DNA from: Candidatus Peregrinibacteria bacterium
Lineage (GTDB): Bacteria > Patescibacteriota > Gracilibacteria > UBA1369 > UBA12463
Length of the DNA stretch: 64,000 bases
Direction of reading: 5' to 3'
NCBI GenBank assembly: GCA_037447365.1
Contig: JBBIGU010000002.1
Span: 6,678-70,677, forward strand
In this document: in pieces, positions 1,166 to 48,309 of the stretch
Position numbering within the stretch: position 1 is the first letter of the stretch
Layout of the letters: the number at the start of each line of letters is the position of its first letter
The notes under the pieces: model-generated
The model's input: only the letters and a program-made list of their open reading frames with translations
Told to the model about the DNA's origin: nothing
The model's database searches: none
Made by a program: the position numbers and the translations under genes

Positions 1166-1188
1166 GTGAGAGTGAGGTGAGTGAGTTT

Positions 1189-27786: not shown

Positions 27787-28350
27787 ATGTCTACTTTTAC
27801 CCCGCAAGATCAGTCGCAAACTCCTCGCAGCCCAGCTTTGTCTTTCTTTATCTTGGCCGTGGTTCTGAGTTTACTCTTTTCGGCTTATCTCGTCTACCTT
27901 TTTGTGGCTCAATTCTCTACAAAAAAGGAGGCTGATGTCTACGTTCAAGAGACTGCTCAGTTGCAGCAACAAGTCACCACACTTACTCAGAAAAAAGTAG
28001 GTTATTTGCAGAAAGCAAAACAAGTTTTGGATAAGATTGATAGTCAGCGTATTTATTGGTCGAAAGTTGTCCATGATGCGCTTCTCGTCATGCCAAAAGA
28101 TGCTAAGACTGGAGCTACGAAATCAGATTTTCTCTCATATTCTGGTAGTAGTGATGGAAAGCTGGTCATGAGTATGAAAACGATTGCCGGAAGTCAGAAT
28201 CCGTATATTGATGTTGCTGATGTTGTGAATGCATTTTCTAAGTCATCAGTCTTCCGTGACGTTTTTGTTCCGACTATTTCGAAAAATCAAAATGATCAGG
28301 GACAGGCGGTTCTTACTTATGTCTTAAATCTCACATACCATGGAGAATAA
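27787..28350 (+). CDS. PilN-like type IV pilus assembly protein
   Basis: 187 aa. Short cytoplasmic N-terminus, one TM helix (LSFFILAVVLSLLFSAYLVYLFV), a coiled coil, then a globular domain. First gene of the operon containing pilC and the prepilins. The call rests on architecture and context only. Confidence 0.45.
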   Translation: MSTFTPQDQSQTPRSPALSFFILAVVLSLLFSAYLVYLFVAQFSTKKEADVYVQETAQLQQQVTTLTQKKVGYLQKAKQVLDKIDSQRIYWSKVVHDALLVMPKDAKTGATKSDFLSYSGSSDGKLVMSMKTIAGSQNPYIDVADVVNAFSKSSVFRDVFVPTISKNQNDQGQAVLTYVLNLTYHGE

Positions 28351-28879
28351 ACAAAAATTTTATCTTACGGCTGCGATCGTTCTCGTTGTTGTTATGCTCC
28401 TCGGAGTTCCGTTTGGGATCTTTCCTTTGAGCTCCAAGCTCGATGATGTTCGAAAAATGCGCGATGATGCTTTGGCGGCGAAGGCTAATGTATCGAGCGA
28501 TCTTCAGGTTCTTCAGACGGCCCAGCAATCCCTTGATGGAGTTTCTGAAGTGAAACAGTCTGAATATCTTGATGCGATTCCAGAGGGTGTTCAGCAGGAT
28601 GTCTTAATCAAGAATATTAACGATCTTGCTACGAAGTATGGCGTTACACTCTCAAGTGTTCAATTTGGATTGAGTGATACGCAGGAACTTCCGAAGCGGG
28701 TAAGTGTGAGCGCGAGCTTCCAGAGTGGATATAGCGATTTGCTGGAGTTTTTGCGAGCGCTTGAGGCGAATCGACGACGTATTCATGTGAAATCGATCAG
28801 CGTTCAGGTTGTTCCACAAGCTGGTACATCTGCCGTCAACTTCTCTCTTGATATGGAAGCTTTTTATCAGGGTGCATAA
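28340..28879 (+). CDS. PilO-like type IV pilus assembly protein
   Basis: 179 aa. One TM helix, a coiled coil and a C-terminal domain. It overlaps the upstream gene by 11 nt. The call rests on architecture and context only. Confidence 0.45.
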   Translation: MENKQKFYLTAAIVLVVVMLLGVPFGIFPLSSKLDDVRKMRDDALAAKANVSSDLQVLQTAQQSLDGVSEVKQSEYLDAIPEGVQQDVLIKNINDLATKYGVTLSSVQFGLSDTQELPKRVSVSASFQSGYSDLLEFLRALEANRRRIHVKSISVQVVPQAGTSAVNFSLDMEAFYQGA

Positions 28880-28901
28880 TCGTAATATGTAGATATATTT
28901 T

Positions 28902-30122
28902 ATGGAATCTTTCGAGTCACAATCATTACAGACTGGTTCGTCATTACAAGACAACTCATCGTCTTCTATTCTTCAAAATGTTTCTGAAAAGCCAGTAGAA
29001 GAGATTGTATATGGTGTGTACGATAATTCTCGCGCGAATGTTTTTCGCCAGCTTAATGATTTTCTCATTGATCATAGTAAAGTAAGTCTCAAGGAAAAAT
29101 CGTATGTTTTTTATTTATTGTCGGTGATGGTGGATAGCGGCGTTCCACTTATTCAGTCACTTCGAATTGTGGCTCGTCGAACCACAAGTGAACGCATGCG
29201 ACGAGTACTCTTTACGGTCGCTTTTGATGTGGAAAAAGGTAAAAATTTTGCCGACAGTCTTGCTCGATTTCCAGATGTTTTTGAAGAATTTGAAATTGGA
29301 GTTATTCGGAGTGGTGAAGTTTCTGGTCATTTAGATAGAATGCTCTCTCGTCTTGCTACTGAAGTTGAAGATGCTTATGACCTTCAATCTCAATTGTGGA
29401 GCGCAGCGTTTTACCCAATCACTGTCTTTGCCGTTTTGCTTGTTGTTGGATTTGGTGTGATGACATTTCTAGTTCCGCGAATTCTTGGTTTTTCTCAGGA
29501 CTTGATTGGTACTGGACGTGAGCTTCCTTCAGCAACACAGGTACTTATTAGTACTCAGCATATTATTACAAATTATTGGTGGTTGTTGTTCCTTCTCGTT
29601 TTTGGTGGATATGGACTTTGGAATTTTTATGTTAAAACTGGAACAGGTAAGTTGCAGTGGGATCTTTTTGTTTTGAAATTTCCGGTTCTTGGAATGCTCC
29701 GAAGAAAAATATATGTTCTTCGAATTATTCGATTACTTGCGATTCTTCTTGAGTCTGGACTTCCAATTCTCGTAACACTCAAAATGGTTGCCAAGAGTAT
29801 TCCAAATGAAATATATAAATTGAAATTATGGGATGCCATGAATCAGGTTCAGCAGGGCGGAAAACTACACTCTGCTTTTCAAGATAACTCATTCTTGTTT
29901 CCAGAAGAGGTGACATCGATGCTTGCTATTGGTGAACAGTCTGCGACTATTGCACAGAGTGCGAGTCGTGCTGCTACTCAGTATGAAAAAGAAATTAAAC
30001 ATACATTAAAAAAGCTTACGACGATTTTTGAGCCGGCACTTATTATTATTGCCGGTATCTTCGTTGCCGTGATGGCGCTCGCTGTTTTGATGCCTATCTT
30101 CGATCTTACGAGTCAGATTTAA
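28902..30122 (+). CDS. pilC: type IV pilus platform protein PilC (GspF family)
   Basis: 406 aa. Two internal T2SS-F repeats, each followed by TM helices, and a typical C-terminal ...LMPIFDL. Confidence 0.85.
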   Translation: MESFESQSLQTGSSLQDNSSSSILQNVSEKPVEEIVYGVYDNSRANVFRQLNDFLIDHSKVSLKEKSYVFYLLSVMVDSGVPLIQSLRIVARRTTSERMRRVLFTVAFDVEKGKNFADSLARFPDVFEEFEIGVIRSGEVSGHLDRMLSRLATEVEDAYDLQSQLWSAAFYPITVFAVLLVVGFGVMTFLVPRILGFSQDLIGTGRELPSATQVLISTQHIITNYWWLLFLLVFGGYGLWNFYVKTGTGKLQWDLFVLKFPVLGMLRRKIYVLRIIRLLAILLESGLPILVTLKMVAKSIPNEIYKLKLWDAMNQVQQGGKLHSAFQDNSFLFPEEVTSMLAIGEQSATIAQSASRAATQYEKEIKHTLKKLTTIFEPALIIIAGIFVAVMALAVLMPIFDLTSQI

Positions 30123-30139
30123 TTTCACCTCAATGTCAC

Positions 30140-30697
30140 ATGCCTTCTCTCAAACATCAACAACATAGAGGCTTTACACTTATCGAACTTGTCATTGTTA
30201 TAGCAATTATCGGTATTATTGTTGCAATGTCCTTGTCGAGTTATATGGGTTATCGAAAGAGTATTGCGTTGTCGTTGGCTGTCGATTCATTGCAGTCTGC
30301 TGTGAAACAAATTCAGCAGCAAGCACGTTCAGGCAAAACCTTTGACGGTACGATACCTTGTTATGGTCTTCTTTTTGAGCAGGGAAAACCGGTTCATTTT
30401 GTGACGGCAGCATACCAAAAAACAAGCGGAAAAAATACATCCGCTGATCAGATTTGTACCCAGGAGAAAATTGAAAATTTAATTCCCCTCATGGATGGAA
30501 TAAATGTTGTTGGTTTTGATTCTTCAATCAACATGCGTGTTTTTGCCACTCCGCCTCGAGGAGATATTGTAACTTCCGGTCTTGATATTAATGCTTCTTC
30601 AATTCATTTTCGACTTCAATTTGGAAGTGATAGTACAAAATCGGTTTCCGTAAAAATGAATCTTCCATTTGGTATTTTGCAACGAGATCAGCTCTAA
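30140..30697 (+). CDS. type IV prepilin (candidate major pilin)
   Basis: Leader MPSLKHQQHRG followed by FTLIELVIVIAIIGIIVAM, with the prepilin peptidase site G|F and Glu at +5. Confidence 0.8.
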   Translation: MPSLKHQQHRGFTLIELVIVIAIIGIIVAMSLSSYMGYRKSIALSLAVDSLQSAVKQIQQQARSGKTFDGTIPCYGLLFEQGKPVHFVTAAYQKTSGKNTSADQICTQEKIENLIPLMDGINVVGFDSSINMRVFATPPRGDIVTSGLDINASSIHFRLQFGSDSTKSVSVKMNLPFGILQRDQL

Positions 30698-30703
30698 TAT
30701 TTT

Positions 30704-31369
30704 ATGAAACATTTTCTTACACATTTTCGACTTTATATTCAATCGCCATCTCATACACGTGATGGATTTACGCTTCTTGAGCTTATTATTAGTTTTGCGG
30801 TTATGTCGATTGTCGTCTTTGGTGTGACGAGTTTATATGTAACATCTATTCGTTCTAATGCTGCGCAGGTTGATCGTTTTATTGCCTATAATCTTGCTCA
30901 AGAAGGACTTGAAGGTGTTCGAAATATTCGTGACACCTACTTCCGTCAGTCGCTTCCTTGGGATGGAAGTGATACTTCTGTTTCTTTGGTTGATAAGCCA
31001 TTTATTGATGGAACATATATTATTTCACGAAAGATTTCTCTTCCGATTGTTCAGTCATTTCAATCTGAGAATAAAGAGTCAGTTAAAAGTAGCATTCCTT
31101 GGATTTTTAAGTCCTTGAGCCAAAAAGACGATAGTCTTATTTACGAAGTTCATGCACAGGAAAATACGGGAATTCCATATTATGTTCATAAAATGGATTC
31201 ACTTCCTGCGGACAGTACGCCAACCATGTATCGTAGATCCATTACGCTTTCCAAGATTGATCAAAATCGAATTTTAGTTACGGCGCATGTTGAATGGAGT
31301 GATCATGGAAACCAAAAATCTCTCGATCTTGCAACAGAACTTACCAATTGGAAACAACGACCATTCTAA
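30704..31369 (+). CDS. prepilin-type minor pilin
   Basis: Long leader ending ...HTRDG followed by FTLLELIISFAVMSIVVFGV, with Glu at +5. Confidence 0.75.
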   Translation: MKHFLTHFRLYIQSPSHTRDGFTLLELIISFAVMSIVVFGVTSLYVTSIRSNAAQVDRFIAYNLAQEGLEGVRNIRDTYFRQSLPWDGSDTSVSLVDKPFIDGTYIISRKISLPIVQSFQSENKESVKSSIPWIFKSLSQKDDSLIYEVHAQENTGIPYYVHKMDSLPADSTPTMYRRSITLSKIDQNRILVTAHVEWSDHGNQKSLDLATELTNWKQRPF

Positions 31370-31376
31370 TATCTTT

Positions 31377-32021
31377 ATGAAATTTTCTTTATTAACTAGT
31401 CGGGTGAATCGTAGTAAACAAAAGGGTTTCACTCTCATTGAAATCCTGGTCTCCTTGTCGATTTTTTTGATCTTGCTTGGCGTACTGATGACTTCGTTCT
31501 TTCAGCTCTACAAAGCACAGCGTGATGCGAATGATGTTCGAAAAGTTGTTGCTGATTTGCGTACCCTTACCAATTTTGTTCAGGACGAAATGAGGACAAA
31601 AACAATTGATTTTTATTCATATAATCCCACGTATCGTCTTTCTTTTGATACTCCGCAGCATGTTTTGTATCTCACCGATAAAAATGGAACGCATCAGACG
31701 ACCATTACATTTATTCCTTCTCAGAAGGGTAGTGTTAGTGGTGAAAATGGCGGTAGTGTTGTTTTTACAAAGCAGGTTCGGGTTGATAAGGATCATAGTT
31801 GGAGTGCCGATTCTGGTTTTGCCGGTGATCCAAAAAAGATCTCTATTCCACATGTTCAATTAAAAGACGTTTCGTTTTCTCTTGCTCCGATGGGTGATCC
31901 TAATGCAAGTCTTGATAATCTTCGTGACAGTACTTTGCAAATGCAGCCATCGGTTACAATGCATGTTCGATTTGGAAATAATTATTATCTGCAAACTACT
32001 TTTTCCTCACGTGTTTACTAA
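31377..32021 (+). CDS. prepilin-type minor pilin
   Basis: The track ORF starts at 31287 inside the upstream gene. ATG 31377 gives MKFSLLTSRVNRSKQKG followed by FTLIEILVSLSIFLILLGV. Confidence 0.75.
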   Translation: MKFSLLTSRVNRSKQKGFTLIEILVSLSIFLILLGVLMTSFFQLYKAQRDANDVRKVVADLRTLTNFVQDEMRTKTIDFYSYNPTYRLSFDTPQHVLYLTDKNGTHQTTITFIPSQKGSVSGENGGSVVFTKQVRVDKDHSWSADSGFAGDPKKISIPHVQLKDVSFSLAPMGDPNASLDNLRDSTLQMQPSVTMHVRFGNNYYLQTTFSSRVY

Positions 32022-32024
32022 CTC

Positions 32025-33155
32025 ATGAATATTTTTACTTCACATCGACGGGGAAGTGCATTGATTACCACACTCTTGGTAACTGCACTCATTATGCTTA
32101 CTGCCGTTGGACTTGCTCAGTTGATTACTGGCGATATTCGAACGGGAGGGGAGTTTGTGCAAGATGGAAAGGCGTTATATATGGCTGAGAGCGGATTGGA
32201 AAGAGGCTTGCTTACCTTGAAAGATCAGCTTCCTGGCTATCAGCCAAAACTTGTAAAAGGTGGTGTTGAGAAAGAGACTCTTTCTTATGAAACTAATTTC
32301 AAGACTCAAGCAAATGATATTCCTCATGTTGAGCCTGGCATGGTGAGTGTTTTCAATAAGGCCGATGCATATAATACACTTGCGGCCCAACATTCTGTTG
32401 CGGTTCCGTTGTTTACTGTTGATGACGCTGGTGTGGCTCATAATATTCAAGACTTCCTCGTAAAATATTATGTTCCATTTGATCTTTCAAAAAATATTGC
32501 AGGATCTCAATTGCAAGATATTGATTTCTTCCGATGGAAGATTGTTGGTATTGCGCATGATACAAAAAAAGCTGAGTCAGTAAGCGACTTTACGTCCGCT
32601 TCTGATTTTGCTATCGCCGAGAAGCCAAACTGTTTTGGAACCTCAAAAGAAAAAGTTCAGGAGAAGTTTTCTGATATTATTCCTGACTGCATTCCCGATA
32701 TGGTGAAGTCTTCTACGGATGTGCAGAATTGCCAATATAACCAAGCTCGATCGTATTACAAATACACAGTAAAGACTTCCTATGATGGCTTCGAGGATAG
32801 CGCTCCTATTGAAGTTCTTGATACTCCTTGTTATGCGATTGCTGATTTTCTTGCGAATCATGATCAGAATTACTTGATCCTTACGAATCTCGTGAATCCC
32901 GATATCATTCAGGCGCTGAGTCCTGATGCTCAGGCCGCCCTCTCTTACATTAAATATCGTGTTATCACTACGGAGCCAGTTTTGCGAGATAAGGTGACTA
33001 TAGAATCGACCGGAAATTCTGGTGGTATTCTTGGTGGGGTTGGCGCTGCTCTCCTTGGTGGCTCTACTAAAAAGCTCGATCTTCAGCTTTCTGGAGATGC
33101 TTTTTTGCCAGTCTTTAACTTCTCAATCTACCAGACGGATTTGAAGAAGAAGTAG
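32025..33155 (+). CDS. PilX-like pilus-associated protein
   Basis: 376 aa. N-terminus RRGSALITTLLVTALIMLTAVGLAQL...ALYMAESGLERGL resembles the PilX N-terminal domain, with no Glu at +5. Last gene of the pilin cluster. Confidence 0.55.
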   Translation: MNIFTSHRRGSALITTLLVTALIMLTAVGLAQLITGDIRTGGEFVQDGKALYMAESGLERGLLTLKDQLPGYQPKLVKGGVEKETLSYETNFKTQANDIPHVEPGMVSVFNKADAYNTLAAQHSVAVPLFTVDDAGVAHNIQDFLVKYYVPFDLSKNIAGSQLQDIDFFRWKIVGIAHDTKKAESVSDFTSASDFAIAEKPNCFGTSKEKVQEKFSDIIPDCIPDMVKSSTDVQNCQYNQARSYYKYTVKTSYDGFEDSAPIEVLDTPCYAIADFLANHDQNYLILTNLVNPDIIQALSPDAQAALSYIKYRVITTEPVLRDKVTIESTGNSGGILGGVGAALLGGSTKKLDLQLSGDAFLPVFNFSIYQTDLKKK

Positions 33156-33231: not shown

Positions 33232-34791
33232 ATGCAAAAATCTTTCTTTGTTACGACCTCGATTGCTTACGTGAACTCCGTCCCACACATTGGTTTTGCG
33301 ATGGAATTAGTACAGGCAGATGTTCTTGCTCGTTATCATCGACTTAAGGGTGAAAAAGTTTTTTACGAAACGGGTACGGATGAGCATGGTATCAAAATTT
33401 TCAGAACCGCTGCTGACCTCAGTATGACTCCTCAGGAGATGGTTGATAAAAATGCTCAAAGATTCCGAGATCTTACCAAAGCTCTTAGTATTTCCAATGA
33501 TTTTTTTGTTCGCACAACAAATCCAGATCATAAGCGTGGTGCTCAGAAGATTTGGCAAAAGATGGCTGAAAATGGTGAAGATGGTAAAAAGGATATTTAC
33601 AAGGGCACGTACGAAGGTCTCTACTGTGTTGGCTGCGAAGCATATGTCCTCGAAAAGGATCTCGTTGATGGCAATTGCTCTATTCACAAGAAGCCACCAG
33701 AGCTTCTCAAAGAAGATAACTATTTTTTCCGACTTTCGAAATATTCCGCGCAGATCAAGGAACTTATCGAAACCGATAAACTCAAAGTTGTCCCAGAGGC
33801 GCGCAAGAATGAAATTCTCAATATCATCGGCGAAGGCCTTCCTGATGTCAGTTTTTCACGTCCGAACTCAATGCTTCCATGGGGCGTTCCAGTTCCTGGC
33901 GATGAGTCACAGGTGATGTATGTTTGGTGTGATGCGCTTTCAAATTACATTACGGGTATTGGATATAATGGAGATAACGAAGAGCAAAATGAGATGTTCA
34001 AAACATTCTGGCCGGCTCAAGTCCACCTCATTGGGAAGGATATTCTTCGATTTCATGCAGGTGTTTGGATTGGTATGCTCCTTTCTGCCGGACTCGCAAT
34101 ACCAGAAAATATTTACGTTCATGGATTTATTACGTCTGAAGGTCAGAAGATGAGTAAGTCCCTCGGAAATGTTGTCGATCCCTTTGAATTCACTGAAAAA
34201 TATGGCATCGATCCTGTGAGATATTATTTGTTGAAAGAAATTCCAACGACCGATGATGGCGACTTTAGTAAAGAAAGATTCCTCGGAGTGTATGGTTCAG
34301 ATTTGGCTAACAGCCTTGGAAATCTCGTCTATCGTGTCTTCTCCATGAACGAAAAATATTTTGAAGGGAAGATTGTGAAGAAAGCCCTGAGCGCACCTGC
34401 TACATTAACTGCACCACTTCCTGAACTTATTGCTCGATATCATGCGTCTATTAATGATTTTGATTTGAAATCTGCGCTTGAGCTTGTTGTAAAGCTCATG
34501 AATGCGGGTAATGAACATGTTGAAATTTCGAAACCTTGGGCACTCGCAAAGACCGACATGGACAAGCTTGCTGAGGTTATGTACCAACTTCTCGAACTCA
34601 TTCGTATTATCGCCGTTTTACTTTCTCCATTTATTCCAACTACTGCCGAAAAGATTCTTGCTCAGTATGGCGAATCGGGAAAGGTAAGTGATGCGGTGGG
34701 TGGTCTTGATACGGCTCTTATTTGGGGTCAGCTTCCTGAAGGCCTGCAGCTCACAAAAGGGGAGCCACTGTTCCCGAGGTTGGAGGAGTAA
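33232..34791 (+). CDS. metG: methionyl-tRNA synthetase
   Basis: 519 aa. SIAYVNSVPHIGFAME (HIGH-class motif) and KMSKSLGN. Confidence 0.93.
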   Translation: MQKSFFVTTSIAYVNSVPHIGFAMELVQADVLARYHRLKGEKVFYETGTDEHGIKIFRTAADLSMTPQEMVDKNAQRFRDLTKALSISNDFFVRTTNPDHKRGAQKIWQKMAENGEDGKKDIYKGTYEGLYCVGCEAYVLEKDLVDGNCSIHKKPPELLKEDNYFFRLSKYSAQIKELIETDKLKVVPEARKNEILNIIGEGLPDVSFSRPNSMLPWGVPVPGDESQVMYVWCDALSNYITGIGYNGDNEEQNEMFKTFWPAQVHLIGKDILRFHAGVWIGMLLSAGLAIPENIYVHGFITSEGQKMSKSLGNVVDPFEFTEKYGIDPVRYYLLKEIPTTDDGDFSKERFLGVYGSDLANSLGNLVYRVFSMNEKYFEGKIVKKALSAPATLTAPLPELIARYHASINDFDLKSALELVVKLMNAGNEHVEISKPWALAKTDMDKLAEVMYQLLELIRIIAVLLSPFIPTTAEKILAQYGESGKVSDAVGGLDTALIWGQLPEGLQLTKGEPLFPRLEE

Positions 34792-34805: not shown

Positions 34806-35387
34806 TTATAACGTTTGAATTATTTTTCCGGATTTGTCTTTAATAACCTCTTCCGGAAGTTTACCTCCCCCAGGTTGTGATTCTAATTTTTTTAAATCTT
34901 CTTCACTTTGCTTTATCTGTTGTTCTAGATCAGTAGTTGCTTTTATGTCGGTTGCTTTTTGTATAATTGGAAACGGCTGAATAATAAGTCTTACGATCAA
35001 GTATGAGAACATGACGAGTGCGAGACCGAGAAGCGCCCAGGTGAGCTCTCGTTTAGCATTTTCAATTTGAGACTCTTCGCCCATGGCGAAGGCATAGTCA
35101 CCACCAGCTCGAACGATAAACATGACTGCGAGTGGTGCGGCTACAAAGAGGAGTAAGTTTGCGATGTACTGCAATACGATATTGAAAGCCGAAACAGCTC
35201 TGTCTTGCTGAGTATCTCCTTGTTGTCCCGTAGCACTATTTACTTTTTCTTGAAGTGATTTATTGAGATCTTGAAGTCCTGCATTTTTTGGTACGAGATA
35301 GTCAGGAATTCCTATCGCTGCTTGAGTAGCGGTGAAAAGTGTCGCGCTGAGGATGAGTGATGCGAGAATGATTGATAACTTTTTCAT
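34806..35387 (-). CDS. VirB2/TrbC-like (T4SS-pilin-type) membrane protein, paralog 1
   Basis: Signal peptide MKKLSIILASLILSATLFTATQA, then TM helix, loop AMGEESQIENAK, TM helix, plus a charged C-terminal tail. Confidence 0.6.
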   Translation of the reverse strand: MKKLSIILASLILSATLFTATQAAIGIPDYLVPKNAGLQDLNKSLQEKVNSATGQQGDTQQDRAVSAFNIVLQYIANLLLFVAAPLAVMFIVRAGGDYAFAMGEESQIENAKRELTWALLGLALVMFSYLIVRLIIQPFPIIQKATDIKATTDLEQQIKQSEEDLKKLESQPGGGKLPEEVIKDKSGKIIQTL

Positions 35388-35397
35388 ATGTATCTAT

Positions 35398-35844
35398 TTA
35401 TTCGAGTGGCTTGATGAGCGTAATAGCACGAACGATAGCGTATGATGCTGCAATGATAACATCGCCGATGGCGATATAGATAATGATCGTTTTTGCTTTA
35501 GTCTGTTTATCCTCTTCACCATCCGAGAAGACGAGAATCACTCCTGCTACAACCGCTCCGACGAATGTCATAACGACAGCAACTCCTGAAAGAATTTTGA
35601 TGATTCCAGAGAACACGTCGGCAAATGATGATTCTTGCGTTGATTTAACTTGTTTCGATAAGTCTTTGAGGTTTTTGTTTACATCTTTCCCGTCGATTTG
35701 CAGGTTCTCAACCTTGAAGATCTTATCAATACCTTCAGTAACACTTTTATCTTCCGGAGTTTGTACTACTGCAAGTGTAACGGTTGGCATAACCATTACA
35801 AGTGTCATCATAAGAGCGATAATGTAGGTTTGAATTTTTTTCAT
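35398..35844 (-). CDS. VirB2/TrbC-like (T4SS-pilin-type) membrane protein, paralog 2
   Basis: Signal peptide, then TM helix, loop SDGEEDKQTKAK, TM helix. 148 aa. Confidence 0.6.
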   Translation of the reverse strand: MKKIQTYIIALMMTLVMVMPTVTLAVVQTPEDKSVTEGIDKIFKVENLQIDGKDVNKNLKDLSKQVKSTQESSFADVFSGIIKILSGVAVVMTFVGAVVAGVILVFSDGEEDKQTKAKTIIIYIAIGDVIIAASYAIVRAITLIKPLE

Positions 35845-35862
35845 ATTTTTTCTTTTGTATAT

Positions 35863-36261
35863 TTATCCTCCAATTTTAAGCTTGAGAAGTATTGATACGA
35901 GGGCGTACGAGAGCATTGCTACGGCGATTCCTACGGCTGACCATTTCATAATTTTTTTTGCTTTTTCTGTTTGTCCTTCCTCGCCAAATGATACGACGTA
36001 TAGGACACCTCCATACACGAATGAGACAAGTGCCATACTTCCTGTAAATCCCACAAAGAAGGTTGTAAGAAATGGAATGACGAATGTGACTCCGTAACCT
36101 CCATTAACCCCACCTTGGCCCTTGAGTGACTCTTGTTGCGCAATGTCAGGTCCTGCCAATGACTTTGGCTTTGGTATAAATGATTGCGCATAGGCTGCCT
36201 GTAGACCCAAGGTCATGACGAGAAGTGATACGGTGATGATGATTTTTGCGAGTGGTTTCAT
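35863..36261 (-). CDS. VirB2/TrbC-like (T4SS-pilin-type) membrane protein, paralog 3
   Basis: Signal peptide ending LQAAYA, then TM helix, loop SFGEEGQTEKAK, TM helix. 132 aa. Confidence 0.6.
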   Translation of the reverse strand: MKPLAKIIITVSLLVMTLGLQAAYAQSFIPKPKSLAGPDIAQQESLKGQGGVNGGYGVTFVIPFLTTFFVGFTGSMALVSFVYGGVLYVVSFGEEGQTEKAKKIMKWSAVGIAVAMLSYALVSILLKLKIGG

Positions 36262-36272
36262 AATGCATTACT

Positions 36273-37055
36273 TTATGGTGCAGGTAATGGCTCAGGAGCC
36301 GGCGCTTCTCCTCCATCCTTCGTTACTTCTGTTGGCGGATTTTGTCCGCTATAATCTGGCGCTTGGAAGAATGTTGGATTGATGATGTAAAGAAGTCCTG
36401 ATGCGAAAAAGAGGAGTACGATCCCTCCAATTGCCTGAACGATTCGGCCCTTAGCTTCTCCTACAACCGATGGTTCGCCTTCGCCTTTGGCAATTGAAAT
36501 TTGAATTCCGCTAATCACAATTGTGAGTACTGCAATAACTCCAACGATTCCTGCCGCCCAGCGATAAATAAGTCCAAGATATAGTTGCAATAATCCCGTT
36601 CCTCCTTGCGCTGGATCAATGAGGAGAACGGTAACTTCCTGACAGTCAAAGTACTGACCATTATCGTCTGTTCCGAGAGCTGGAACGTCCTTTGGACATT
36701 TTTCGAGAAGTAGTTGATTTGTGATTTTTTTTACTCCTCCACCTTTTGCATCGCAGTTTAGAATTTCTGTATAACGTACACATGCTTTAACTTTTCCCGG
36801 AGTTCCGCTTCCAGACTCGGTATTTGGCGTGTCTATGCTTTCTTCGAGGACGGTGAAAATGTTGTTTTTAACTTCGGTATCAGATAAACAGAGTTTTCCG
36901 GCGCTTATATTCGTTTTTTTTGCATCTTCTACTTTTGATTTACATTTTGTGACAAGTGGATCTTCCACGGTTTTATCTGCCGCAAGCGCAGCGTATGGGA
37001 GAAGTAATCCTCCGAGCACAATGCTTATCACCAATGTTTTGAATAATGTTTTCAT
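36273..37055 (-). CDS. VirB2/TrbC-like membrane protein, paralog 4, with a Cys-rich ectodomain
   Basis: ATG 37055 (MKTLFKTLVISIVLGG...) lies 4 nt after the upstream stop. Six Cys in the mature N-domain. TM helix, loop AKGEGEPSVVGEAK, TM helix, then a Pro/Ala-rich tail. Confidence 0.6.
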   Translation of the reverse strand: MKTLFKTLVISIVLGGLLLPYAALAADKTVEDPLVTKCKSKVEDAKKTNISAGKLCLSDTEVKNNIFTVLEESIDTPNTESGSGTPGKVKACVRYTEILNCDAKGGGVKKITNQLLLEKCPKDVPALGTDDNGQYFDCQEVTVLLIDPAQGGTGLLQLYLGLIYRWAAGIVGVIAVLTIVISGIQISIAKGEGEPSVVGEAKGRIVQAIGGIVLLFFASGLLYIINPTFFQAPDYSGQNPPTEVTKDGGEAPAPEPLPAP

Positions 37056-37059
37056 ACGT

Positions 37060-37620
37060 TTATGAGAGAAGGCTGGTGACAATGTTAACAAAGATAAATG
37101 ATAGGAGCGCGAAAATAACTCCAAGGATTGAGTAGAGCATCATGCCTTTTCCTTTCGTAACCCATCCTTCGTCGCCGTGATTTGCGATCATCATAATACC
37201 TGCCACGATAAGTGTTAAGAGAGCAAGTGATCCAATGACATAAACGAGAATATCGATGATTCGAAGAAATGTTCCGAGAAGAACTCCATATTTTTCGACT
37301 GGATAATCTTTATTTGCGAAGATGGATTGTCCTTGTGTTACCTTATTTCCTTTACTGTCTTTGGTTGTAAGAGTGAGAAAGTTGAGTGGTAATTTGAAGC
37401 CTTGCCCTGAGGCATTGCGTATTGCTGCTGCCTTTTCTGCTGCCGCTGTTGCGTCCGCCTTTGCTTTCTCTGCCGCTGCATCTGCTTGTTGTTGGCAATA
37501 TTCCGGAGAATCATCTGGTCCACACTGAAAATCCGCCCGCACAACAGTTGGTACGTATAATAATGGCATAATCATTATTGCGAGAAGTCCGATGGTAATT
37601 GCGCCTGTAGTTCGTTTCAT
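37060..37620 (-). CDS. VirB2/TrbC-like membrane protein, paralog 5
   Basis: Signal peptide, CGPDDSPEYC, an Ala/Lys-rich helix, then TM helix, loop NHGDEGWVTKGK, TM helix. 186 aa. Confidence 0.6.
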   Translation of the reverse strand: MKRTTGAITIGLLAIMIMPLLYVPTVVRADFQCGPDDSPEYCQQQADAAAEKAKADATAAAEKAAAIRNASGQGFKLPLNFLTLTTKDSKGNKVTQGQSIFANKDYPVEKYGVLLGTFLRIIDILVYVIGSLALLTLIVAGIMMIANHGDEGWVTKGKGMMLYSILGVIFALLSFIFVNIVTSLLS

Positions 37621-37649: not shown

Positions 37650-38690
37650 CTAAATCTCAAATTCTGGAGGGATGCTTGCCATGGCGTCTTCTTCAGTGAT
37701 TAAGTCGGCCTGGAGCAAGTCCATGACGGCTTTTTTCATCGTCTGCATGCCGTCGCGGAGACCGGTTTCGATGGCGGAGTTGATCTGGAATGTTTTTTCT
37801 TTTCGAATCATGTTAGAGATCGCGTTGTTGACGAACATGATTTCGAGAGCGGCGAGACGACCCTTTCGATCCTTTGTTTTGAGAAGGTTCTGCCAGATAA
37901 CTGCTTTCAAACTTTCAGCGAGCTGTGTACGAATTTGATTCTGTTGTGATGGAGGGAAGGCGTCGATGATACGATCGACTGATCGTGCGGCACCACTGGT
38001 ATGCATGGTTGCGAGGACCAAGTGACCTGTTTCCGCAGCTGTGATGGCAAGTCCCATGGTTTCAAGATCACGCATTTCACCGACGATAATAATGTCTGGA
38101 TTTTCACGAACGGAAGCCTTCAAAGCCTTTGCGAAGGATGCGGTGTGGGTTCCAACTTCACGCTGTTCGATCATCGACTTTTTGTTTTCGTGAGTGAACT
38201 CGATTGGATCTTCGATGGTAATGATATGCTTTGATTGCTTTTCGTTGATCTCATTAGCAATGGCTGCGAGTGTTGTCGACTTACCAGAACCTGTTGGACC
38301 GGTGATAATGACGAGACCTTGTTTGAGCTGTGTGATCTGTCGTATTTGCTGTGGAAGTGCAAGCTCGTCGAGACTGTAAACAACTTCCGGAATGATACGA
38401 AAAGCAGCACTGATTCCTTTTCGCTGAACAAACATATTTACACGAAATCGTCCAATGTTCTCAATTTCAAGCGAGAAGTCGAGATCGAGCGTCTGTTCGA
38501 ATTTTTTCTTTTGCACTTCGTTCAATGTCTCAAGCAGATAATCTTCTGCCATTTGTTTTGTGAGAATTGGGTGGTCTTCGACGGCTATGAGATCACCATT
38601 GATACGAAGAATCGGTTTACTTCCTGTTGAGATGAATATATCCGAAGCCTTGTACTGGATAGCTGTGCGGAAAATTTTATCGAGTTTCAT
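37650..38690 (-). CDS. pilT: type IV pilus retraction ATPase PilT
   Basis: 346 aa. Walker A GPTGSGKSTTLAA, IIVGEMRD and His-box LVLATMHTSGA. The size fits PilT rather than PilB. Confidence 0.9.
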   Translation of the reverse strand: MKLDKIFRTAIQYKASDIFISTGSKPILRINGDLIAVEDHPILTKQMAEDYLLETLNEVQKKKFEQTLDLDFSLEIENIGRFRVNMFVQRKGISAAFRIIPEVVYSLDELALPQQIRQITQLKQGLVIITGPTGSGKSTTLAAIANEINEKQSKHIITIEDPIEFTHENKKSMIEQREVGTHTASFAKALKASVRENPDIIIVGEMRDLETMGLAITAAETGHLVLATMHTSGAARSVDRIIDAFPPSQQNQIRTQLAESLKAVIWQNLLKTKDRKGRLAALEIMFVNNAISNMIRKEKTFQINSAIETGLRDGMQTMKKAVMDLLQADLITEEDAMASIPPEFEI

Positions 38691-38833
38691 CGGGGTTGGT
38701 TTTTATTTTTATCTCACTATTGTACCATAAATGCTCATTTTTCTCAAGCTAGAACAGCCTTTATTAATCATACCCCCTTAAAGCTGATAGGTGATTTGAT
38801 ATGTATTCTTTTTTTGAAGCTGAATTTGTCCAA

Positions 38834-39694
38834 TTATCGACGTTTTACCTTTCCGCCAACCGTGTCTGTACTAGTTGGGGTTGATGGGGTTGTGGTATCG
38901 CCACCTGGAGCCGTAATGTCGCCTGTTGGCGGGATTGTCAATCCACCTGTCGTTTCATCGGTTGATACTGGTGGTGTCGCAATTGGTTCGACAGGAGCGG
39001 TTATATCTGGGGTGGTATTTTCAATAGGCAATGTAGATGAGTTTTCGACCTGTTGCTGAATGTCACTTGAAAGTGGCTGACTTGTCGAAAGGAATGTTTT
39101 ATAGAAGAAGAATCCCCCAATAATAGCTACCGCGAGGACTCCTACAAAAATAGCCCATTTTGTATTTTGAGAAAGTCCCTGAACGGTACTGAGCATTGAC
39201 GGTCCTGTTGCCATTTCACCTTTTTCCATTTCCTTTGTGAGCATTTCTGGTGCTGCTGCAGATGTAATCGGTTTGAGAGGGGATAGCGGAGCAGGAGTTG
39301 GTGTAACTGGCGTAGGCTTTGGAGTTGGTGTCACTACTGGAGCTACGGGAGTTGGTTTTGCGACGACAGGTGCTGAAGTTACTGCAGGAGTTGTTGCTGC
39401 TGGAACGGATGCCGGTGTAGCAATAGGTGTTGTTGCGGCAGGCGTTGTTGGTTTGAGATTCATATCTAATTTGAACGCTGCTGGTGCGGGTGTTGCTGGT
39501 GCTGGTGCGGGTGTTGCCACTGTAGTCATAGTTCCGCCAAGTTCTGCGAGCATTTTTTGAGCATCAACATTGCCTGGATCGAAACTTAATAATTCCTGAA
39601 GACCCTTTATAGCCTTATCTTTTTCGCCTTTTGAAACCCAGTCTTTGATATGATCAAAAGCTGCCTGGACGGTTGTTTTAATTGGTTCTGCCAT
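38834..39694 (-). CDS. bitopic membrane protein with a TPR-like N-terminus and Pro/Thr/Ala-rich linkers
   Basis: 286 aa. Helical N-terminal approximately 50 aa, a long PAPAPATPAPAA / TPTPKPTPVTPTP low-complexity tract, one TM helix (WAIFVGVLAVAIIGGFFFY) and a Thr-rich C-terminus. Confidence 0.55.
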   Translation of the reverse strand: MAEPIKTTVQAAFDHIKDWVSKGEKDKAIKGLQELLSFDPGNVDAQKMLAELGGTMTTVATPAPAPATPAPAAFKLDMNLKPTTPAATTPIATPASVPAATTPAVTSAPVVAKPTPVAPVVTPTPKPTPVTPTPAPLSPLKPITSAAAPEMLTKEMEKGEMATGPSMLSTVQGLSQNTKWAIFVGVLAVAIIGGFFFYKTFLSTSQPLSSDIQQQVENSSTLPIENTTPDITAPVEPIATPPVSTDETTGGLTIPPTGDITAPGGDTTTPSTPTSTDTVGGKVKRR

Positions 39695-39736: not shown

Positions 39737-40330
39737 TTAAAATCGTTCGAGATTGAGTTCTTCCATACCGTAATCCTCAGTGCTGTTTCTTGGCAAGACG
39801 TTTTCGATTGCGCCCCACTCACTCTCTTCATTTGCTGGAACAACAAGCGTAACTTTACTTCCAACTTCGCCGCGGAAGTAGGTGACTGATGCGAGGAGAA
39901 CTTTGTAGGTTTTTCCGCTTACAATAACCTTGTACTGACCGTCATCATTGGTGAGAATGCCAATAATGTGCTTACGTTCGATTGGTTTGATCTGCTTATA
40001 AAGGAAGGTTCCATCATCTTTAATAGTAAGTTTCAACACATCACCTGGAACGAGTTTTGATTTGCTGGCGTAATTGGCTGGAACTGGATAGGCTCTTTTG
40101 TCTGGACCAATCATCGTCTGGCCATCAAAAACACCCTCGAGAACATTGGCATCTCCATTCATGCCACTTTCCTGTTCGAGTGATGTAGCCTTTTTTACAT
40201 ATTTAGAACGAGCAGACGGTTTGCTTTCCCCACCGCTTATTTCTGCAAGTAACTGTTGAGCTGATCGAAGGCTTGTTTCTGCGCTTTCGATCATTTCCTG
40301 AATTAACGCTATCTTAGAGTCTTGAGACAT
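39737..40330 (-). CDS. hypothetical protein (197 aa)
   Basis: N-terminal coiled coil, then a beta-rich region (YPVPANYASKSKLVPGDVLKL...). Lies between sbp and the PT-rich protein on the same strand. Confidence 0.55.
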   Translation of the reverse strand: MSQDSKIALIQEMIESAETSLRSAQQLLAEISGGESKPSARSKYVKKATSLEQESGMNGDANVLEGVFDGQTMIGPDKRAYPVPANYASKSKLVPGDVLKLTIKDDGTFLYKQIKPIERKHIIGILTNDDGQYKVIVSGKTYKVLLASVTYFRGEVGSKVTLVVPANEESEWGAIENVLPRNSTEDYGMEELNLERF

Positions 40331-40402
40331 TTGATTTTTGTTTAGGGGAATTTTGTAGCTTTATTATACCTGTTTTTCAGCTTTTCCTCAATTCTCTGCT
40401 CT

Positions 40403-40786
40403 TTACAAAGTTACCTGAATAGTTTCTTCCTTCGATTTCTTTCGTTTTTCGAGCCATCGCTGAAGAAGTGCACGACGCGTAATACCCACATTTGAGAAGA
40501 TTCGGAAGGTGAATACAACGGTTGCTGCGAGATAAAGGTCGAGGCCGAGTTTATCACCAAGGTAGGTAATAACCAGCGCAAGAATAATGTTAAAAAAGAG
40601 TCCTGATATGAAAATGACCGCGTTGTATTGATCTCGAGTGATCTCAGCACGAATAGCGCCAAAGAGCGCATCAAGAATTCCGATCAAAATGACCGCGGAG
40701 AATTTTGTATATATGACCGGAATGGTGACATTGATGCCAAGTCCGAGAAGAATGCCGAGTAAAATTCCGAGGAGAGCCCAAATCAT
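40403..40786 (-). CDS. sbp: small basic membrane protein, Sbp/DUF1290-like
   Basis: 127 aa, four TM helices and a basic tail. It resembles B. subtilis Sbp and occupies the same position after divIB/ftsQ. Confidence 0.55.
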   Translation of the reverse strand: MIWALLGILLGILLGLGINVTIPVIYTKFSAVILIGILDALFGAIRAEITRDQYNAVIFISGLFFNIILALVITYLGDKLGLDLYLAATVVFTFRIFSNVGITRRALLQRWLEKRKKSKEETIQVTL

Positions 40787-40823
40787 GAAACAATATGATG
40801 AATGACTTTGCGTTTATTATATC

Positions 40824-41879
40824 TTACTTTTTTCTTTTGAAAATGACTTTTTCGCCGCTGGTTCCTGTGATCCGTAGATCGATGTAGTTGAGTGGAACTT
40901 TGTAAATGTCTACTGTTGCCATTGCTTTCTTGAGTTTAAGGAATTGTCTTTCATAAGAAATTTGTGTGTCGAGCCAAATGGTGAAGTATTTTTCCGTTTT
41001 GATGTGGAGTTCTCGTGCGTTGATAAGGAATTGTGTTTCCATAATCTTCATACCAAACTTTTCTTCGAAATAGCTTGTTGCCTTTAGAATATAATTCAAA
41101 GTTTCTGCTGTAAGGATTGGTTTTGTTGGATCGAGAACTGGAGTATTGGAAGTTGGATTTTCCGACGGTGTTACTGTTGTTGCTGGTGCTACTGGTGATT
41201 CTGTGGATGTTCCCGAATCTGTCGGTGTTGCTGTTGATGTTGTGGCTTCCGGTGTCGCTGCGTTTGTTTCCGGATTTTTCATTGTTGCCAATGTTTCTAC
41301 CTTTGGAGTTTTGCTGATGATTTTTATGTATGGAAGATTTGGATTTTCAGTATTTCCGTATACTGGCATTCCGACAGCATTAACCATCATTTTTCCAAGT
41401 GTTTTTCCATCAACAACTTGTTCGATATTTGCGACGATAGGGAATTCAGAAAAGTGAATTTGAATTGTTCCTGGTAGAATTTTTTTAGCGGTGATTTGCT
41501 GTAACTCAGGATGATCTTTGTGAATTTGATTTACGATAGTATCTGTATCTGTTGTGAGAATATTTTTCCCTTTTAATGAACTGAAGTATTCTAATATGCT
41601 GTTGTTTTCGTTTTGTAATTCCTCGTACTGAATGTAAATATTTCCAATTTTAAAATATGATGAAAATACGAATACATAGAGTCCTGCTCCAATAATCACG
41701 CATGCTGTGAGCCCAAGAAGTATTCTCTTGATTGTTGTGAGCGATGGCATCGATACGTTTGGAATAGTCATGCTCCTTCGATTTCTCACTCCCGATGATC
41801 TGTTGTTGGTAAGAAGAGGGCCGCGACCATATCGAGTATGGGCTTGTATGTTCCCTCTTCGTTTTCGACTAAAAAACAT
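40824..41879 (-). CDS. ftsQ: cell-division protein FtsQ/DivIB-like
   Basis: 351 aa. Basic N-terminus, one TM helix, a POTRA-like segment (IGNIYIQYEELQNENNSILEYFSSLKGKNIL...LPGTIQIHFSEFPIVANIE) and a Thr/Pro-rich insertion (ATPEATTSTATPTDSGTSTESPVAPATTVTPSENPTSNTP). Confidence 0.6.
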   Translation of the reverse strand: MFFSRKRRGNIQAHTRYGRGPLLTNNRSSGVRNRRSMTIPNVSMPSLTTIKRILLGLTACVIIGAGLYVFVFSSYFKIGNIYIQYEELQNENNSILEYFSSLKGKNILTTDTDTIVNQIHKDHPELQQITAKKILPGTIQIHFSEFPIVANIEQVVDGKTLGKMMVNAVGMPVYGNTENPNLPYIKIISKTPKVETLATMKNPETNAATPEATTSTATPTDSGTSTESPVAPATTVTPSENPTSNTPVLDPTKPILTAETLNYILKATSYFEEKFGMKIMETQFLINARELHIKTEKYFTIWLDTQISYERQFLKLKKAMATVDIYKVPLNYIDLRITGTSGEKVIFKRKK

Positions 41880-47052: not shown

Positions 47053-48309
47053 ATGGGACATAAAATTGAATATTCTCTCTCGAGATACTTTCCTGAAGGT
47101 ACAGAATATTTTTACGGATATCCTGCTGAACAAGACTCACACTTTTTCAATGGAGTTCCTCCGGAAATTGAAGAGATGGTATCTGGTCGACCAATGGTGT
47201 GCGCTGGTCCAAACGTGAAAGCTGTTTGTTTTTCTGCCTGTCTTGATTCTATTCCATTTTCTATTCTTCGCGATGACCTCGATGTGATTCGTGTTGATCG
47301 AAAACAGATTCTTACGTTACCAAAAGATATTAATGTTAAAATTCGTGGTTCGAAGCGTAATAAGCTTATCAAGAATGCGCTCTTTGAAATGGCTGGACCA
47401 GGTCAGCTTGTGATGGCTCAGCCGTATCTTGATCCTCGAGCAAAAACGTACTATGCGATTCCGCCACACCGAAGTATTTGGCTTAATGATAAGCGCAATA
47501 TGACGTCCTATATTCCAAAGGCTTATCTTCCGGAGATCTATGAAGAGTTTATGGATGGTGCTTGTTTTCAGCAGGCTGATCAACTTCCTCTTCCGTGTGT
47601 TATCAAGGTTACATCTTCATCGTCTGGTGACGGTGTTCGTATTTGTTATACCAATGAAGATGTTGAGCGTGCAAAGGCTGATTTTGGTCACCTTGAAGGT
47701 ATGATTTTCGTGAGTGAGTATGTGAAGATTCATAGAAATTTTGCCGTTCAATTTGGTATTTCCCATAATCCTGAACAGCCAATTGAAATTATTAACTGGC
47801 ATGAACAGATGGTGTCTCCTTTTGGAGGATTTTTGGGTGGTATTATTGAACCACATGAAAATGAAGAGCTTTTTCAGCCTTTAAATAAGGTCCTTCTCGA
47901 AAAAATTCTTCCTGAGGTTCGACGTCGTGGTTGGTATGGTGTTGGCGGTTTTGACGTTCTCATGACGGAGGATGAACGGTTCTACTTTATTGATCCGAAC
48001 TTTCGTATGACGGGTATGACGGTCTATGATTTCTTGGCTCGAAATAATGTCATCAAAAAATCACTTCTGAGTTTTAATTCAGAGTTTCATGGTAGCGAGC
48101 GTGAGTTCCGTGAAAAGATTCTTCCTGTTGCCAAGCCTGGCGCTAATCAACTTCTCTACGTCACGGTTCTGACGCATGGCAAAAAAGTTTTCCGTTTGAA
48201 TTCGGCGTTATTATTCGATAAACGCAGTGATATTCCAAAAGTCACAGAAAAACTTTTGAGTCTCGGCCTCGTTTCATCGGTACTAACCGATGCGACGAAG
48301 ATGGCTTAG
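47053..48309 (+). CDS. ATP-grasp fold ligase
   Basis: 418 aa. PCVIKVTSSSSGDGVRICYTNEDVERA (Lys plus Gly-rich loop region), IFVSEYV and GGFDVLMTEDERFYFIDPNFRMTG (Mg/ATP-binding strand pattern). Confidence 0.65.
   Translation: MGHKIEYSLSRYFPEGTEYFYGYPAEQDSHFFNGVPPEIEEMVSGRPMVCAGPNVKAVCFSACLDSIPFSILRDDLDVIRVDRKQILTLPKDINVKIRGSKRNKLIKNALFEMAGPGQLVMAQPYLDPRAKTYYAIPPHRSIWLNDKRNMTSYIPKAYLPEIYEEFMDGACFQQADQLPLPCVIKVTSSSSGDGVRICYTNEDVERAKADFGHLEGMIFVSEYVKIHRNFAVQFGISHNPEQPIEIINWHEQMVSPFGGFLGGIIEPHENEELFQPLNKVLLEKILPEVRRRGWYGVGGFDVLMTEDERFYFIDPNFRMTGMTVYDFLARNNVIKKSLLSFNSEFHGSEREFREKILPVAKPGANQLLYVTVLTHGKKVFRLNSALLFDKRSDIPKVTEKLLSLGLVSSVLTDATKMA

Follow-up and report, generated by a model that had tools for sequence, protein, structure and literature searches.

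Tandem arrays of VirB2-like pilin genes are a described feature of Patescibacteria. Quinonero-Coronel et al. 2025 (PMC12102498) searched 3,035 Patescibacteria assemblies, taken from the NCBI "Patescibacteria group", with PF18895 (T4SS_pilin), PF04956 (TrbC/VirB2) and other profiles, and detected VirB2-like pilins in 1,948 VirB4-containing assemblies. In 1,135 of these the pilins were encoded near virB4, so that they were unlinked in the remaining 813; proximity to virB4 is common in the family but does not define it. The same survey recorded 441 arrays of 2–11 VirB2-like genes with a mean identity of 25%, as well as a marked dispersal of type IV secretion system (T4SS) genes in the class Gracilibacteria; PilT goes unmentioned in it. 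Southlakia epibionticum ML1 carries a six-gene pilin array in its T4SS cluster, and both the array and the T4SS are essential (PMC10633639), points that were restated in a 2025 review (PMC12857230). VirB2-like arrays belong to the small set of Patescibacteria-specific features for which a requirement in the epibiotic lifestyle has been demonstrated. Here we report on a 64,000-nt stretch of the genome of an uncultivated, Peribacteria-like member of Candidatus Peregrinibacteria (assembly GCA_037447365.1, contig JBBIGU010000002.1, positions 6,678–70,677; hereafter the window), in which five consecutive minus-strand genes, termed p1 to p5, follow the pilus retraction gene pilT. At the level of sequence, membership of the five proteins in PF18895 is established. 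They form a cassette of fixed order in Peregrinibacteria, and we favour, with moderate confidence, the view that they serve as VirB2-like pilins in a T4SS of the Patescibacteria type, the other genes of which lie elsewhere in the genome.

Translation of the window and its open reading frame (ORF) listing placed the five genes at 34806–37620. In the order of transcription, p1 to p5 correspond to ORFs E, D, C, B and A of the lettered listing:

37060–37620, minus strand: p1 (ORF E), 186 aa, ectodomain with 2 Cys, hairpin loop NHGDEGWVTKGK
36273–37055, minus strand: p2 (ORF D), 260 aa from the ATG at 37055, ectodomain with 6 Cys, hairpin, Pro-rich tail
35863–36261, minus strand: p3 (ORF C), 132 aa, short ectodomain, hairpin loop SFGEEGQTEKAK
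35398–35844, minus strand: p4 (ORF B), 148 aa, short ectodomain, hairpin loop SDGEEDKQTKAK
34806–35387, minus strand: p5 (ORF A), 193 aa, hairpin loop AMGEESQIENAK, 48-aa hydrophilic C-terminal tail

The intergenic gaps from p1 to p5 measure 4, 11, 18 and 10 nt, and p1 starts 29 nt past the pilT stop. The layout given in the initial annotation, i.e., five minus-strand ORFs spaced by 4–18 nt and located 29 nt downstream of pilT, was thus confirmed by the ORF coordinates. For p2, the mechanical ORF start is a TTG at 37124 that overlaps p1; we adopted the alternative ATG at 37055 (MKTLFK...) because it yields a normal signal peptide and because the same start was called on the identical public contig.

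Hydropathy profiles of all five proteins exhibited an N-terminal hydrophobic segment, a hydrophilic stretch of variable length and two long C-terminal hydrophobic helices joined by a short charged loop. The N-terminal segments are closed by AxA-like sites (TQA/A, TLA/V, AYA/Q, ALA/A and VRA/D). AlphaFold2 models of p3 and p2 showed a helix-loop-helix fold comprising residues 56–90 and 95–131 in p3 (predicted local distance difference test, pLDDT, about 80) and residues 152–191 and 195–225 in p2 (pLDDT 79). In the p2 ectodomain, which contains six cysteines, the model packs a single helix against a sheet of four to five strands, and the p2 C-terminus carries a conserved ILYTINPTFF-type motif that is almost invariant among orthologs. 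The loops share a motif in which Gly and acidic residues are followed by Ala/Gly-Lys, and an alignment of all five shows invariant columns (Gly, Gly, Lys and Gly) in the loop region. Each of the five proteins thus combines a signal peptide of the Sec type with an ectodomain and a two-helix hairpin. This is the shared architecture that had been read from the translations, in which all five of the loop peptides quoted at the time were found again, and the hydropathy profiles, the AxA-like sites and the two models are consistent with the two-helix topology. A prepilin N-methylation motif (PF07963, N_methyl) was not found by Pfam in any of the five at E ≤ 1; the three prepilins at 30140–32021 do match. 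The early statement that the array does not encode type IV prepilins therefore held.

Family membership was assessed against the gathering cut-offs of PF18895 (26.6 bits) and PF04956 (27.9 bits). PF18895 scores lay above the cut-off for p5 (28.7 bits), p4 (29.0 bits), p3 (31.0 bits) and p2 (32.6 bits) and below it for p1 (22.7 bits, E 1e-4). On blastp alignments with three other cassette members (E 1e-6 to 6e-11), p1 is a clear paralog of the other four despite its sub-threshold score. Pairwise identity among the five paralogs amounts to 18–39%, with blastp E-values between them down to 2e-12. A wider scan covered 51 cassette proteins, namely the 5 of the window, 43 from nine related Peregrinibacteria loci and 3 from L020, a locus of a second lineage described below. 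All 51 matched PF18895 at E ≤ 0.05 (best E 3e-13), and 13 of them also matched PF04956 at that threshold (best 6e-6). Furthermore, an hhalign comparison of 80 hairpins with five annotated plasmid VirB2/TrbC proteins yielded a weak match (probability 20%, E 1.1e-3, 59 columns), in which helix 1, loop and helix 2 fall in register. Homology to classical VirB2/TrbC is plausible on these alignments. Of the initial designation as VirB2/TrbC-like and T4SS_pilin proteins, the second half stands, with PF18895 passed by four of the five, whereas the PF04956 cut-off was missed by all of them. NF045849, a pilin-like family of Mycoplasma integrative and conjugative elements (ICEs), gave weak matches with p3 (18 bits) and p4 (21.8 bits) against a cut-off of 40, and the cassette family profile found no match among PDB sequences.

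A profile built from the five hairpins matched 72,199 cluster representatives at E ≤ 1e-3 among 1.84 billion, and the hairpin family is therefore very large. The best matches were long proteins with 3–16 consecutive hairpins (e.g., 552 aa with 6, 1775 aa with 16), which may be genuine polyproteins or arrays fused by gene calling under the wrong genetic code. A single-protein homolog search with p3 retrieved just 15 close relatives; a search with an alignment as query extended further, yet was confined to Peregrinibacteria and Gracilibacteria.

Comparison of ten complete loci revealed that 412 of 450 inter-locus best matches land on the same array position, and the same gene order was seen in loci found later, including those without pilT. 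Among positional orthologs from 13 genomes, the hairpins are 35–59% identical and the ectodomains 23–32%. The p2 hairpin is the most conserved, with 59% identity among orthologs versus 23% for the p2 ectodomain, the length of which ranges from 78 to 256 aa. On these comparisons, the five are ancient paralogs kept as positional orthologs in one fixed order across Peregrinibacteria. Because all five copies are individually retained in order, we favour distinct fixed roles, and the pattern points to non-redundant subunits of one structure as a better fit than interchangeable antigenic variants. The initial annotation had read the five-fold expansion as suggesting a variable surface structure or membrane complex. 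Its observation of divergent ectodomains is sound, as their identities fall below those of the hairpins, but the copies are fixed and do not make up a variable family; with best matches so consistently at the same position, the expansion is neither recent nor free-running.

The cassette is embedded in the following neighbourhood:

37650–38690, minus strand: pilT, PilT/PilU retraction ATPase, first gene of the co-directional run (Pfam T2SSE, 163 bits)
38719–38747, minus strand: promoter-like site, TTGAGA-17-TACAAT with TG, in the 143-nt gap upstream of pilT (consensus pattern match alone)
39737–41879, minus strand: upstream block of a 197-aa protein, DUF1290 (sbp-like, 91 bits) and an FtsQ-like POTRA protein (E 9e-4, below cut-off)
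33232–34791, plus strand: metG, methionyl-tRNA synthetase (Pfam tRNA-synt_1g, 344 bits), convergent with the array at a 14-nt gap
27787–33155, plus strand: type IV pilus (T4P) operon with PilN-like, PilO, PilC, three N-methyl prepilins and PilX-like

The PilT of the window scored 440 bits with the NCBIfam model TIGR01420 (cut-off 319), compared with 62 bits for VirB11 (TIGR02788, cut-off 250) and 61 bits for TrbB (cut-off 305). These scores bore out its earlier identification as a T4P retraction ATPase and led us to reject the idea that pilT is really a VirB11 gene. It is 46–53% identical to PilT of many phyla outside the Candidate Phyla Radiation (CPR). A terminator-like site was not found on the minus strand from pilT to the end of the array. 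Given the gaps of 4–29 nt, the lack of such a site and the promoter-like site upstream of pilT, the genes pilT-p1-p2-p3-p4-p5 probably form one transcript in the window genome. The T4P operon, the assignment of which is based on Pfam matches to T2SSM_b/PilO, T2SSF, N_methyl (three) and PilX_N, is followed on the plus strand by metG. It is hence true of the region that the array converges on a T4P operon, as first described, but metG intervenes. The co-directional "division genes" of that description are DUF1290 (sbp-like) and a gene whose FtsQ POTRA match is weak and below threshold.

Two further proteins lie upstream of pilT on the minus strand. The 197-aa protein (39737–40330) has no Pfam or NCBIfam match. 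Its homologs (48–83% identical in genome loci) occur upstream of pilT in most Peregrinibacteria-type loci covering that stretch, directly after DUF1290 where DUF1290 was detected, and the protein is conserved across the lineage in a division-gene context. The 286-aa protein (38834–39694), which lies between the 197-aa gene and pilT, has one transmembrane segment and an extended low-complexity stretch rich in Pro, Thr and Ala; it was not detected in related loci by tblastn, and Dus or other genes fill the slot there.

To describe the conservation of the locus, a hidden Markov model (HMM) built from the five hairpins was run on all loci retrieved. The closest PilT loci in species-representative genomes all came from metagenome-assembled genomes labelled as Candidatus Peregrinibacteria, Peribacteria or Gracilibacteria (61–88% identity). 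Nine of the 16 Peregrinibacteria-type PilT loci in these genomes show exactly five pilin genes directly after pilT; in three the beginning of the array is visible before the contig ends, in one the contig stops at pilT, and the three with the most distant PilT (61–63% identity) have no array there. A metagenome scan seeded on the conserved p2 C-terminal motif gave 80 further loci. The array has five members in 26 of the 28 metagenome loci with both flanks visible, and a convergent metG follows it in 30 of the 31 in which that flank can be seen. Of 39 metagenome loci, 28 have a same-strand pilT immediately before the array. About nine metagenome loci, and likewise the locus L084, contain an insertion of 1–1.5 kb between pilT and p1, often with an opposite-strand gene of 289–463 aa. 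In two other Peregrinibacteria loci, L086 (GCA_016186205.1) and L087, the cassette, metG and the T4P operon are kept and pilT is not upstream. Here, two or three ORFs of 344–505 aa (505, 398 and 344) lie between FtsK and the array (L086:4651–8371 and L087:6725–9475, both plus strand); none has a Pfam match on record, a Walker A motif, more than two hydrophobic segments or a homolog in the window.

The syntenic block across Peregrinibacteria thus comprises the FtsQ-like gene, DUF1290, the 197-aa gene, pilT, the cassette, convergent metG and the T4P operon. Since all Peregrinibacteria loci share this one long block, they count as roughly one evolutionary observation. Within it, metG and the T4P operon are a tighter partner of the cassette than pilT. 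A strict pilT-cassette operon everywhere is ruled out by the opposite-strand insertions and by the loci without pilT, and the insertions imply that co-transcription with pilT is not required by the system. The pilT linkage highlighted from the start does recur across related genomes, but roughly one locus in four has it disrupted or missing.

A second lineage was represented by L020, a non-Peregrinibacteria locus (PilT 52% identical) with three PF18895 genes divergently transcribed from pilT. Homologs of one L020 pilin led to three more contigs with the same arrangement. The gene context differs from that of Peregrinibacteria, with MetK and LytR on one side and a nitroreductase on the other. 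In two of the three further contigs, an ATPase of 815–817 aa is encoded 1.4–7 kb beyond the array, with features of a type IV coupling protein (T4CP):

L174, 10219–12672, plus strand: T4CP-like ATPase (DUF8128, DUF87, TrwB_AAD_bind, T4SS-DNA_transf)
L173, 15538–16549, plus strand, cut by the locus end: T4CP-like ATPase (same domains)

Judged by these domains, the ATPase looks as a VirD4-like coupling protein would. VirB4 was not visible in the 8-kb flanks of the second-lineage arrays. The second lineage cuts both ways: it presents the PilT-array adjacency in a different setting, and it also shows that arrays of this kind do occur near T4SS ATPases outside Peregrinibacteria.

The third array gene of this lineage (L020:2803–4167, minus strand; L173:8556–9932, plus strand) encodes a protein of 454–458 aa with an N-terminal PF18895 hairpin (35.6 bits) and a C-terminal alpha/beta-hydrolase or polyhydroxybutyrate (PHB)-depolymerase-type esterase domain, which looks like a pilin-anchored or pilin-delivered enzyme. 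L020 further encodes a SMODS-domain nucleotidyltransferase, as in cyclic oligonucleotide-based antiphage signalling systems (CBASS-like; 144–1942, minus strand), beside a tyrosine integrase and 0.9 kb from the array, probably a small mobile defence island.

A number of results count against reading the five proteins as pilins of a T4SS encoded elsewhere. A Pfam scan of 45 window ORFs, including every ORF of at least 300 aa, returned no VirB4, VirB6, VirD4 or VirB3 family match, and no VirB4-like ORF occurs in the window within 26–35 kb on either side of the cassette. Searches of related loci covered >100 loci and ~10 kb on each side of the cassette, the queries being the pCF10 proteins and one T4CP-like ATPase only. 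Phmmer with PrgJ, PcfC, PrgH, PrgI, PrgK and PrgL of pCF10 found nothing in the window or in these loci, and adding the 817-aa T4CP-like ATPase of L174 to the pCF10 queries likewise gave no match, neither in the window nor across 1.14 Mb of related loci; no VirB4-containing T4SS turned up around the cassette in them. The unassigned ORFs of the window, L086 and L087 showed neither a Walker A motif nor a polytopic profile suggestive of VirB4 or VirB6. The absence of T4SS machinery from the 64-kb window, already remarked on in the initial annotation, was thus borne out by Pfam and by phmmer. As to the proteins themselves, the best PF04956 score among the five, 14.3 bits for p2 (E 0.05), falls short of the cut-off, and Foldseek against PDB matched no solved pilins (nothing at E < 1 for p3, nothing at a template-modelling score, TM, > 0.2 for p2), a comparison that discriminates poorly between simple hairpins. 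According to reviews, no pilus of PF18895 proteins has been visualised. We found no paper linking Peregrinibacteria with VirB4, and NCBI taxonomy sets Peregrinibacteriota outside the "Patescibacteria group". Because of this placement, and because no Peregrinibacteria or Peribacter name occurs in the examined part of Table S1 of the survey (PMC12102498), Peregrinibacteria were probably not covered by it. In the literature on "type IV secretion", the sole pair of papers found concerns BD1-5 Gracilibacteria, and the Peribacteria genome paper mentions a type II secretion system (T2SS) and T4P only.

The most economical reading places the T4SS genes elsewhere in the genome; in the neighbouring class, dispersal of such genes is common. 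If the proteins behave like VirB2/TrbC and the Southlakia array, cleavage by signal peptidase would leave a membrane-inserted hairpin whose two ends face outwards and whose Gly-Glu-Glu...Ala-Lys loop faces the cytoplasm. These subunits would make up a membrane pool, from which a VirB4-driven T4SS of the Gram-positive type, encoded elsewhere, could extract them into a surface filament or conduit for host-cell contact. The five groups might represent, e.g., one or two major subunits together with minor or tip subunits, p2 with its Cys-rich ectodomain being a candidate adhesive or distal subunit. The pilT adjacency most readily reflects a chromosomal neighbourhood of cell-surface genes that has persisted for a long time and that probably gives co-expression with pilus retraction here. 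It is no evidence for PilT assembling the pilins.

Several other explanations have to be weighed. The hairpins could be membrane anchors, or build a membrane-embedded hetero-oligomer that displays the ectodomains independently of any T4SS. This would agree with the lack of T4SS genes near the cassette in >100 loci, with the great variation in ectodomain and tail sizes and with the fixed five in fixed order, which suits a defined complex; the hairpin-esterase protein of the second lineage would fit an anchored exo-enzyme. Polyproteins of 3–16 hairpins are hard to fit into a helical pilus, but they may be gene-calling fusions. Moreover, members of the family are found within T4SS clusters, where in Saccharibacteria they are essential, and the family retains an in-register, albeit weak, similarity to VirB2/TrbC, so we hold a T4SS-independent complex to be unlikely. 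The PF18895 matches might also be artefacts of hydrophobic-helix composition and the five ORFs unrelated membrane proteins, given that the scores exceed the Pfam cut-off by merely 2–6 bits (one staying below it) and that the same proteins weakly match many unrelated membrane families. With all 51 cassette proteins matching PF18895 at E-values down to 3e-13, a shared loop motif with invariant Gly and Lys columns, paralog blastp matches down to E 2e-12 and same-position orthologs across many genomes, this explanation is effectively refuted and barely conceivable.

A connection with the T4P apparatus, with PilT or the T4P platform working on the VirB2-like proteins and PilT playing a part akin to that of VirB11 or DotB, two related ATPases employed by certain T4SSs, appears quite improbable to us. 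A co-oriented pilT does immediately precede the cassette in 28 of 39 metagenome loci and 12 of the 16 Peregrinibacteria genome loci, the cassette is always within a few kb of the T4P operon, and an unrelated lineage also pairs PilT with a divergently transcribed three-gene array on four separate contigs. The next-best NCBIfam matches of PilT are TraJ and DotB, PilT-like ATPases of I-type and Dot/Icm T4SSs. Yet the PilT is fully canonical, and a separate paralog for a second job is not evident. Opposite-strand genes separate pilT from the array in several loci, L086 and L087 have an intact cassette, metG and T4P operon without an upstream pilT, and the FtsQ-DUF1290-pilT block persists in more distant Peregrinibacteria that have no cassette there. 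The Peregrinibacteria loci with the shared block, moreover, amount to about a single evolutionary observation. The five proteins, having Sec signal peptides and no prepilin motif, are not T4P substrates. A more far-reaching version would be that Peregrinibacteria have no VirB4-type T4SS at all and run the cassette with T4P machinery, PilT acting as a VirB11/DotB-like ATPase in a hybrid surface organelle. We consider this very unlikely; the PilT-array adjacency in the second, unrelated lineage is the only independent hint of it. If true, such an organelle would join two pilus worlds otherwise kept apart, and a lack of VirB4 in complete genomes, if confirmed, would raise the importance of the finding considerably.

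The Peregrinibacteria cassette offers a clean comparative case of exactly five subunits, with the hairpin conserved and the ectodomains free to vary, a pattern that argues for a defined multi-subunit structure over antigenic variation. It also provides a concrete protein set for multimer modelling and for searches of groundwater metaproteomes, and its adjacency to pilT and the T4P operon is a testable lead on the co-regulation of two surface systems.

The remaining genes of the window are housekeeping genes, including FtsK, SecA, FtsH, tRNA synthetases, TilS, sugar-nucleotide enzymes, acetate kinase/Pta and fumarase. An 872-aa protein (16773–19391, minus strand) combines PG_binding_1 with a transglutaminase core and may be a cell-wall-active enzyme relevant to host contact. 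A 418-aa ATP-grasp protein (47053–48309, plus strand) matched LdmS (L-aspartate--L-methionine ligase) with 79 bits against a cut-off of 475, and its gene is preceded by that of a 523-aa protein without a family match.

Among known systems, the arrays of Patescibacteria resemble the cassette in their PF18895 membership, in the succession of signal peptide, variable ectodomain and hairpin and in the tandem paralogs of ~25% identity, and both occur in monoderm hosts with ultra-small genomes that belong together in the broad GTDB sense. The cassette differs from them in that no virB4 cluster is nearby (64-kb window; ~10 kb in related loci), in following pilT and adjoining metG and the T4P operon, and in its fixed five orthologs. 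With VirB2/TrbC (Agrobacterium VirB2, RP4 TrbC) it shares the signal peptide, the two hydrophobic helices, the short loop and a weak in-register profile match. In contrast to these pilins, its ectodomains are much larger (up to ~120 aa here, 256 aa in orthologs), its loop is acidic with Lys and not Arg/Gly-rich, and there are five paralogs instead of one major pilin, without adjacent virB1, virB3 or virB4 and in a monoderm host. The Mycoplasma ICE proteins Mbov_0395/MMCAP2_0565 (NF045849) are likewise small, two-helix and pilin-like and serve conjugation in monoderms, and the weak matches of p3 and p4 cover the whole 80-residue model; these matches, however, reach 18–22 bits against the cut-off of 40, and the Mycoplasma proteins are encoded by single genes in ICE transfer modules. 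The tandem virB2 genes of Bartonella and Anaplasma are similar in having several divergent copies with variable surface-exposed parts. They sit in otherwise complete virB loci and are thought to provide antigenic or host-range variation (PMC12102498), whereas each Peregrinibacteria copy is individually conserved, which suggests distinct fixed roles. Set beside the published Patescibacteria arrays (PMC12102498, PMC10633639), the arrangement is not a system of unknown kind. The kind is already known; what appears new is the strict five-ortholog cassette and its placement between pilT and the metG/T4P operon in Peregrinibacteria.

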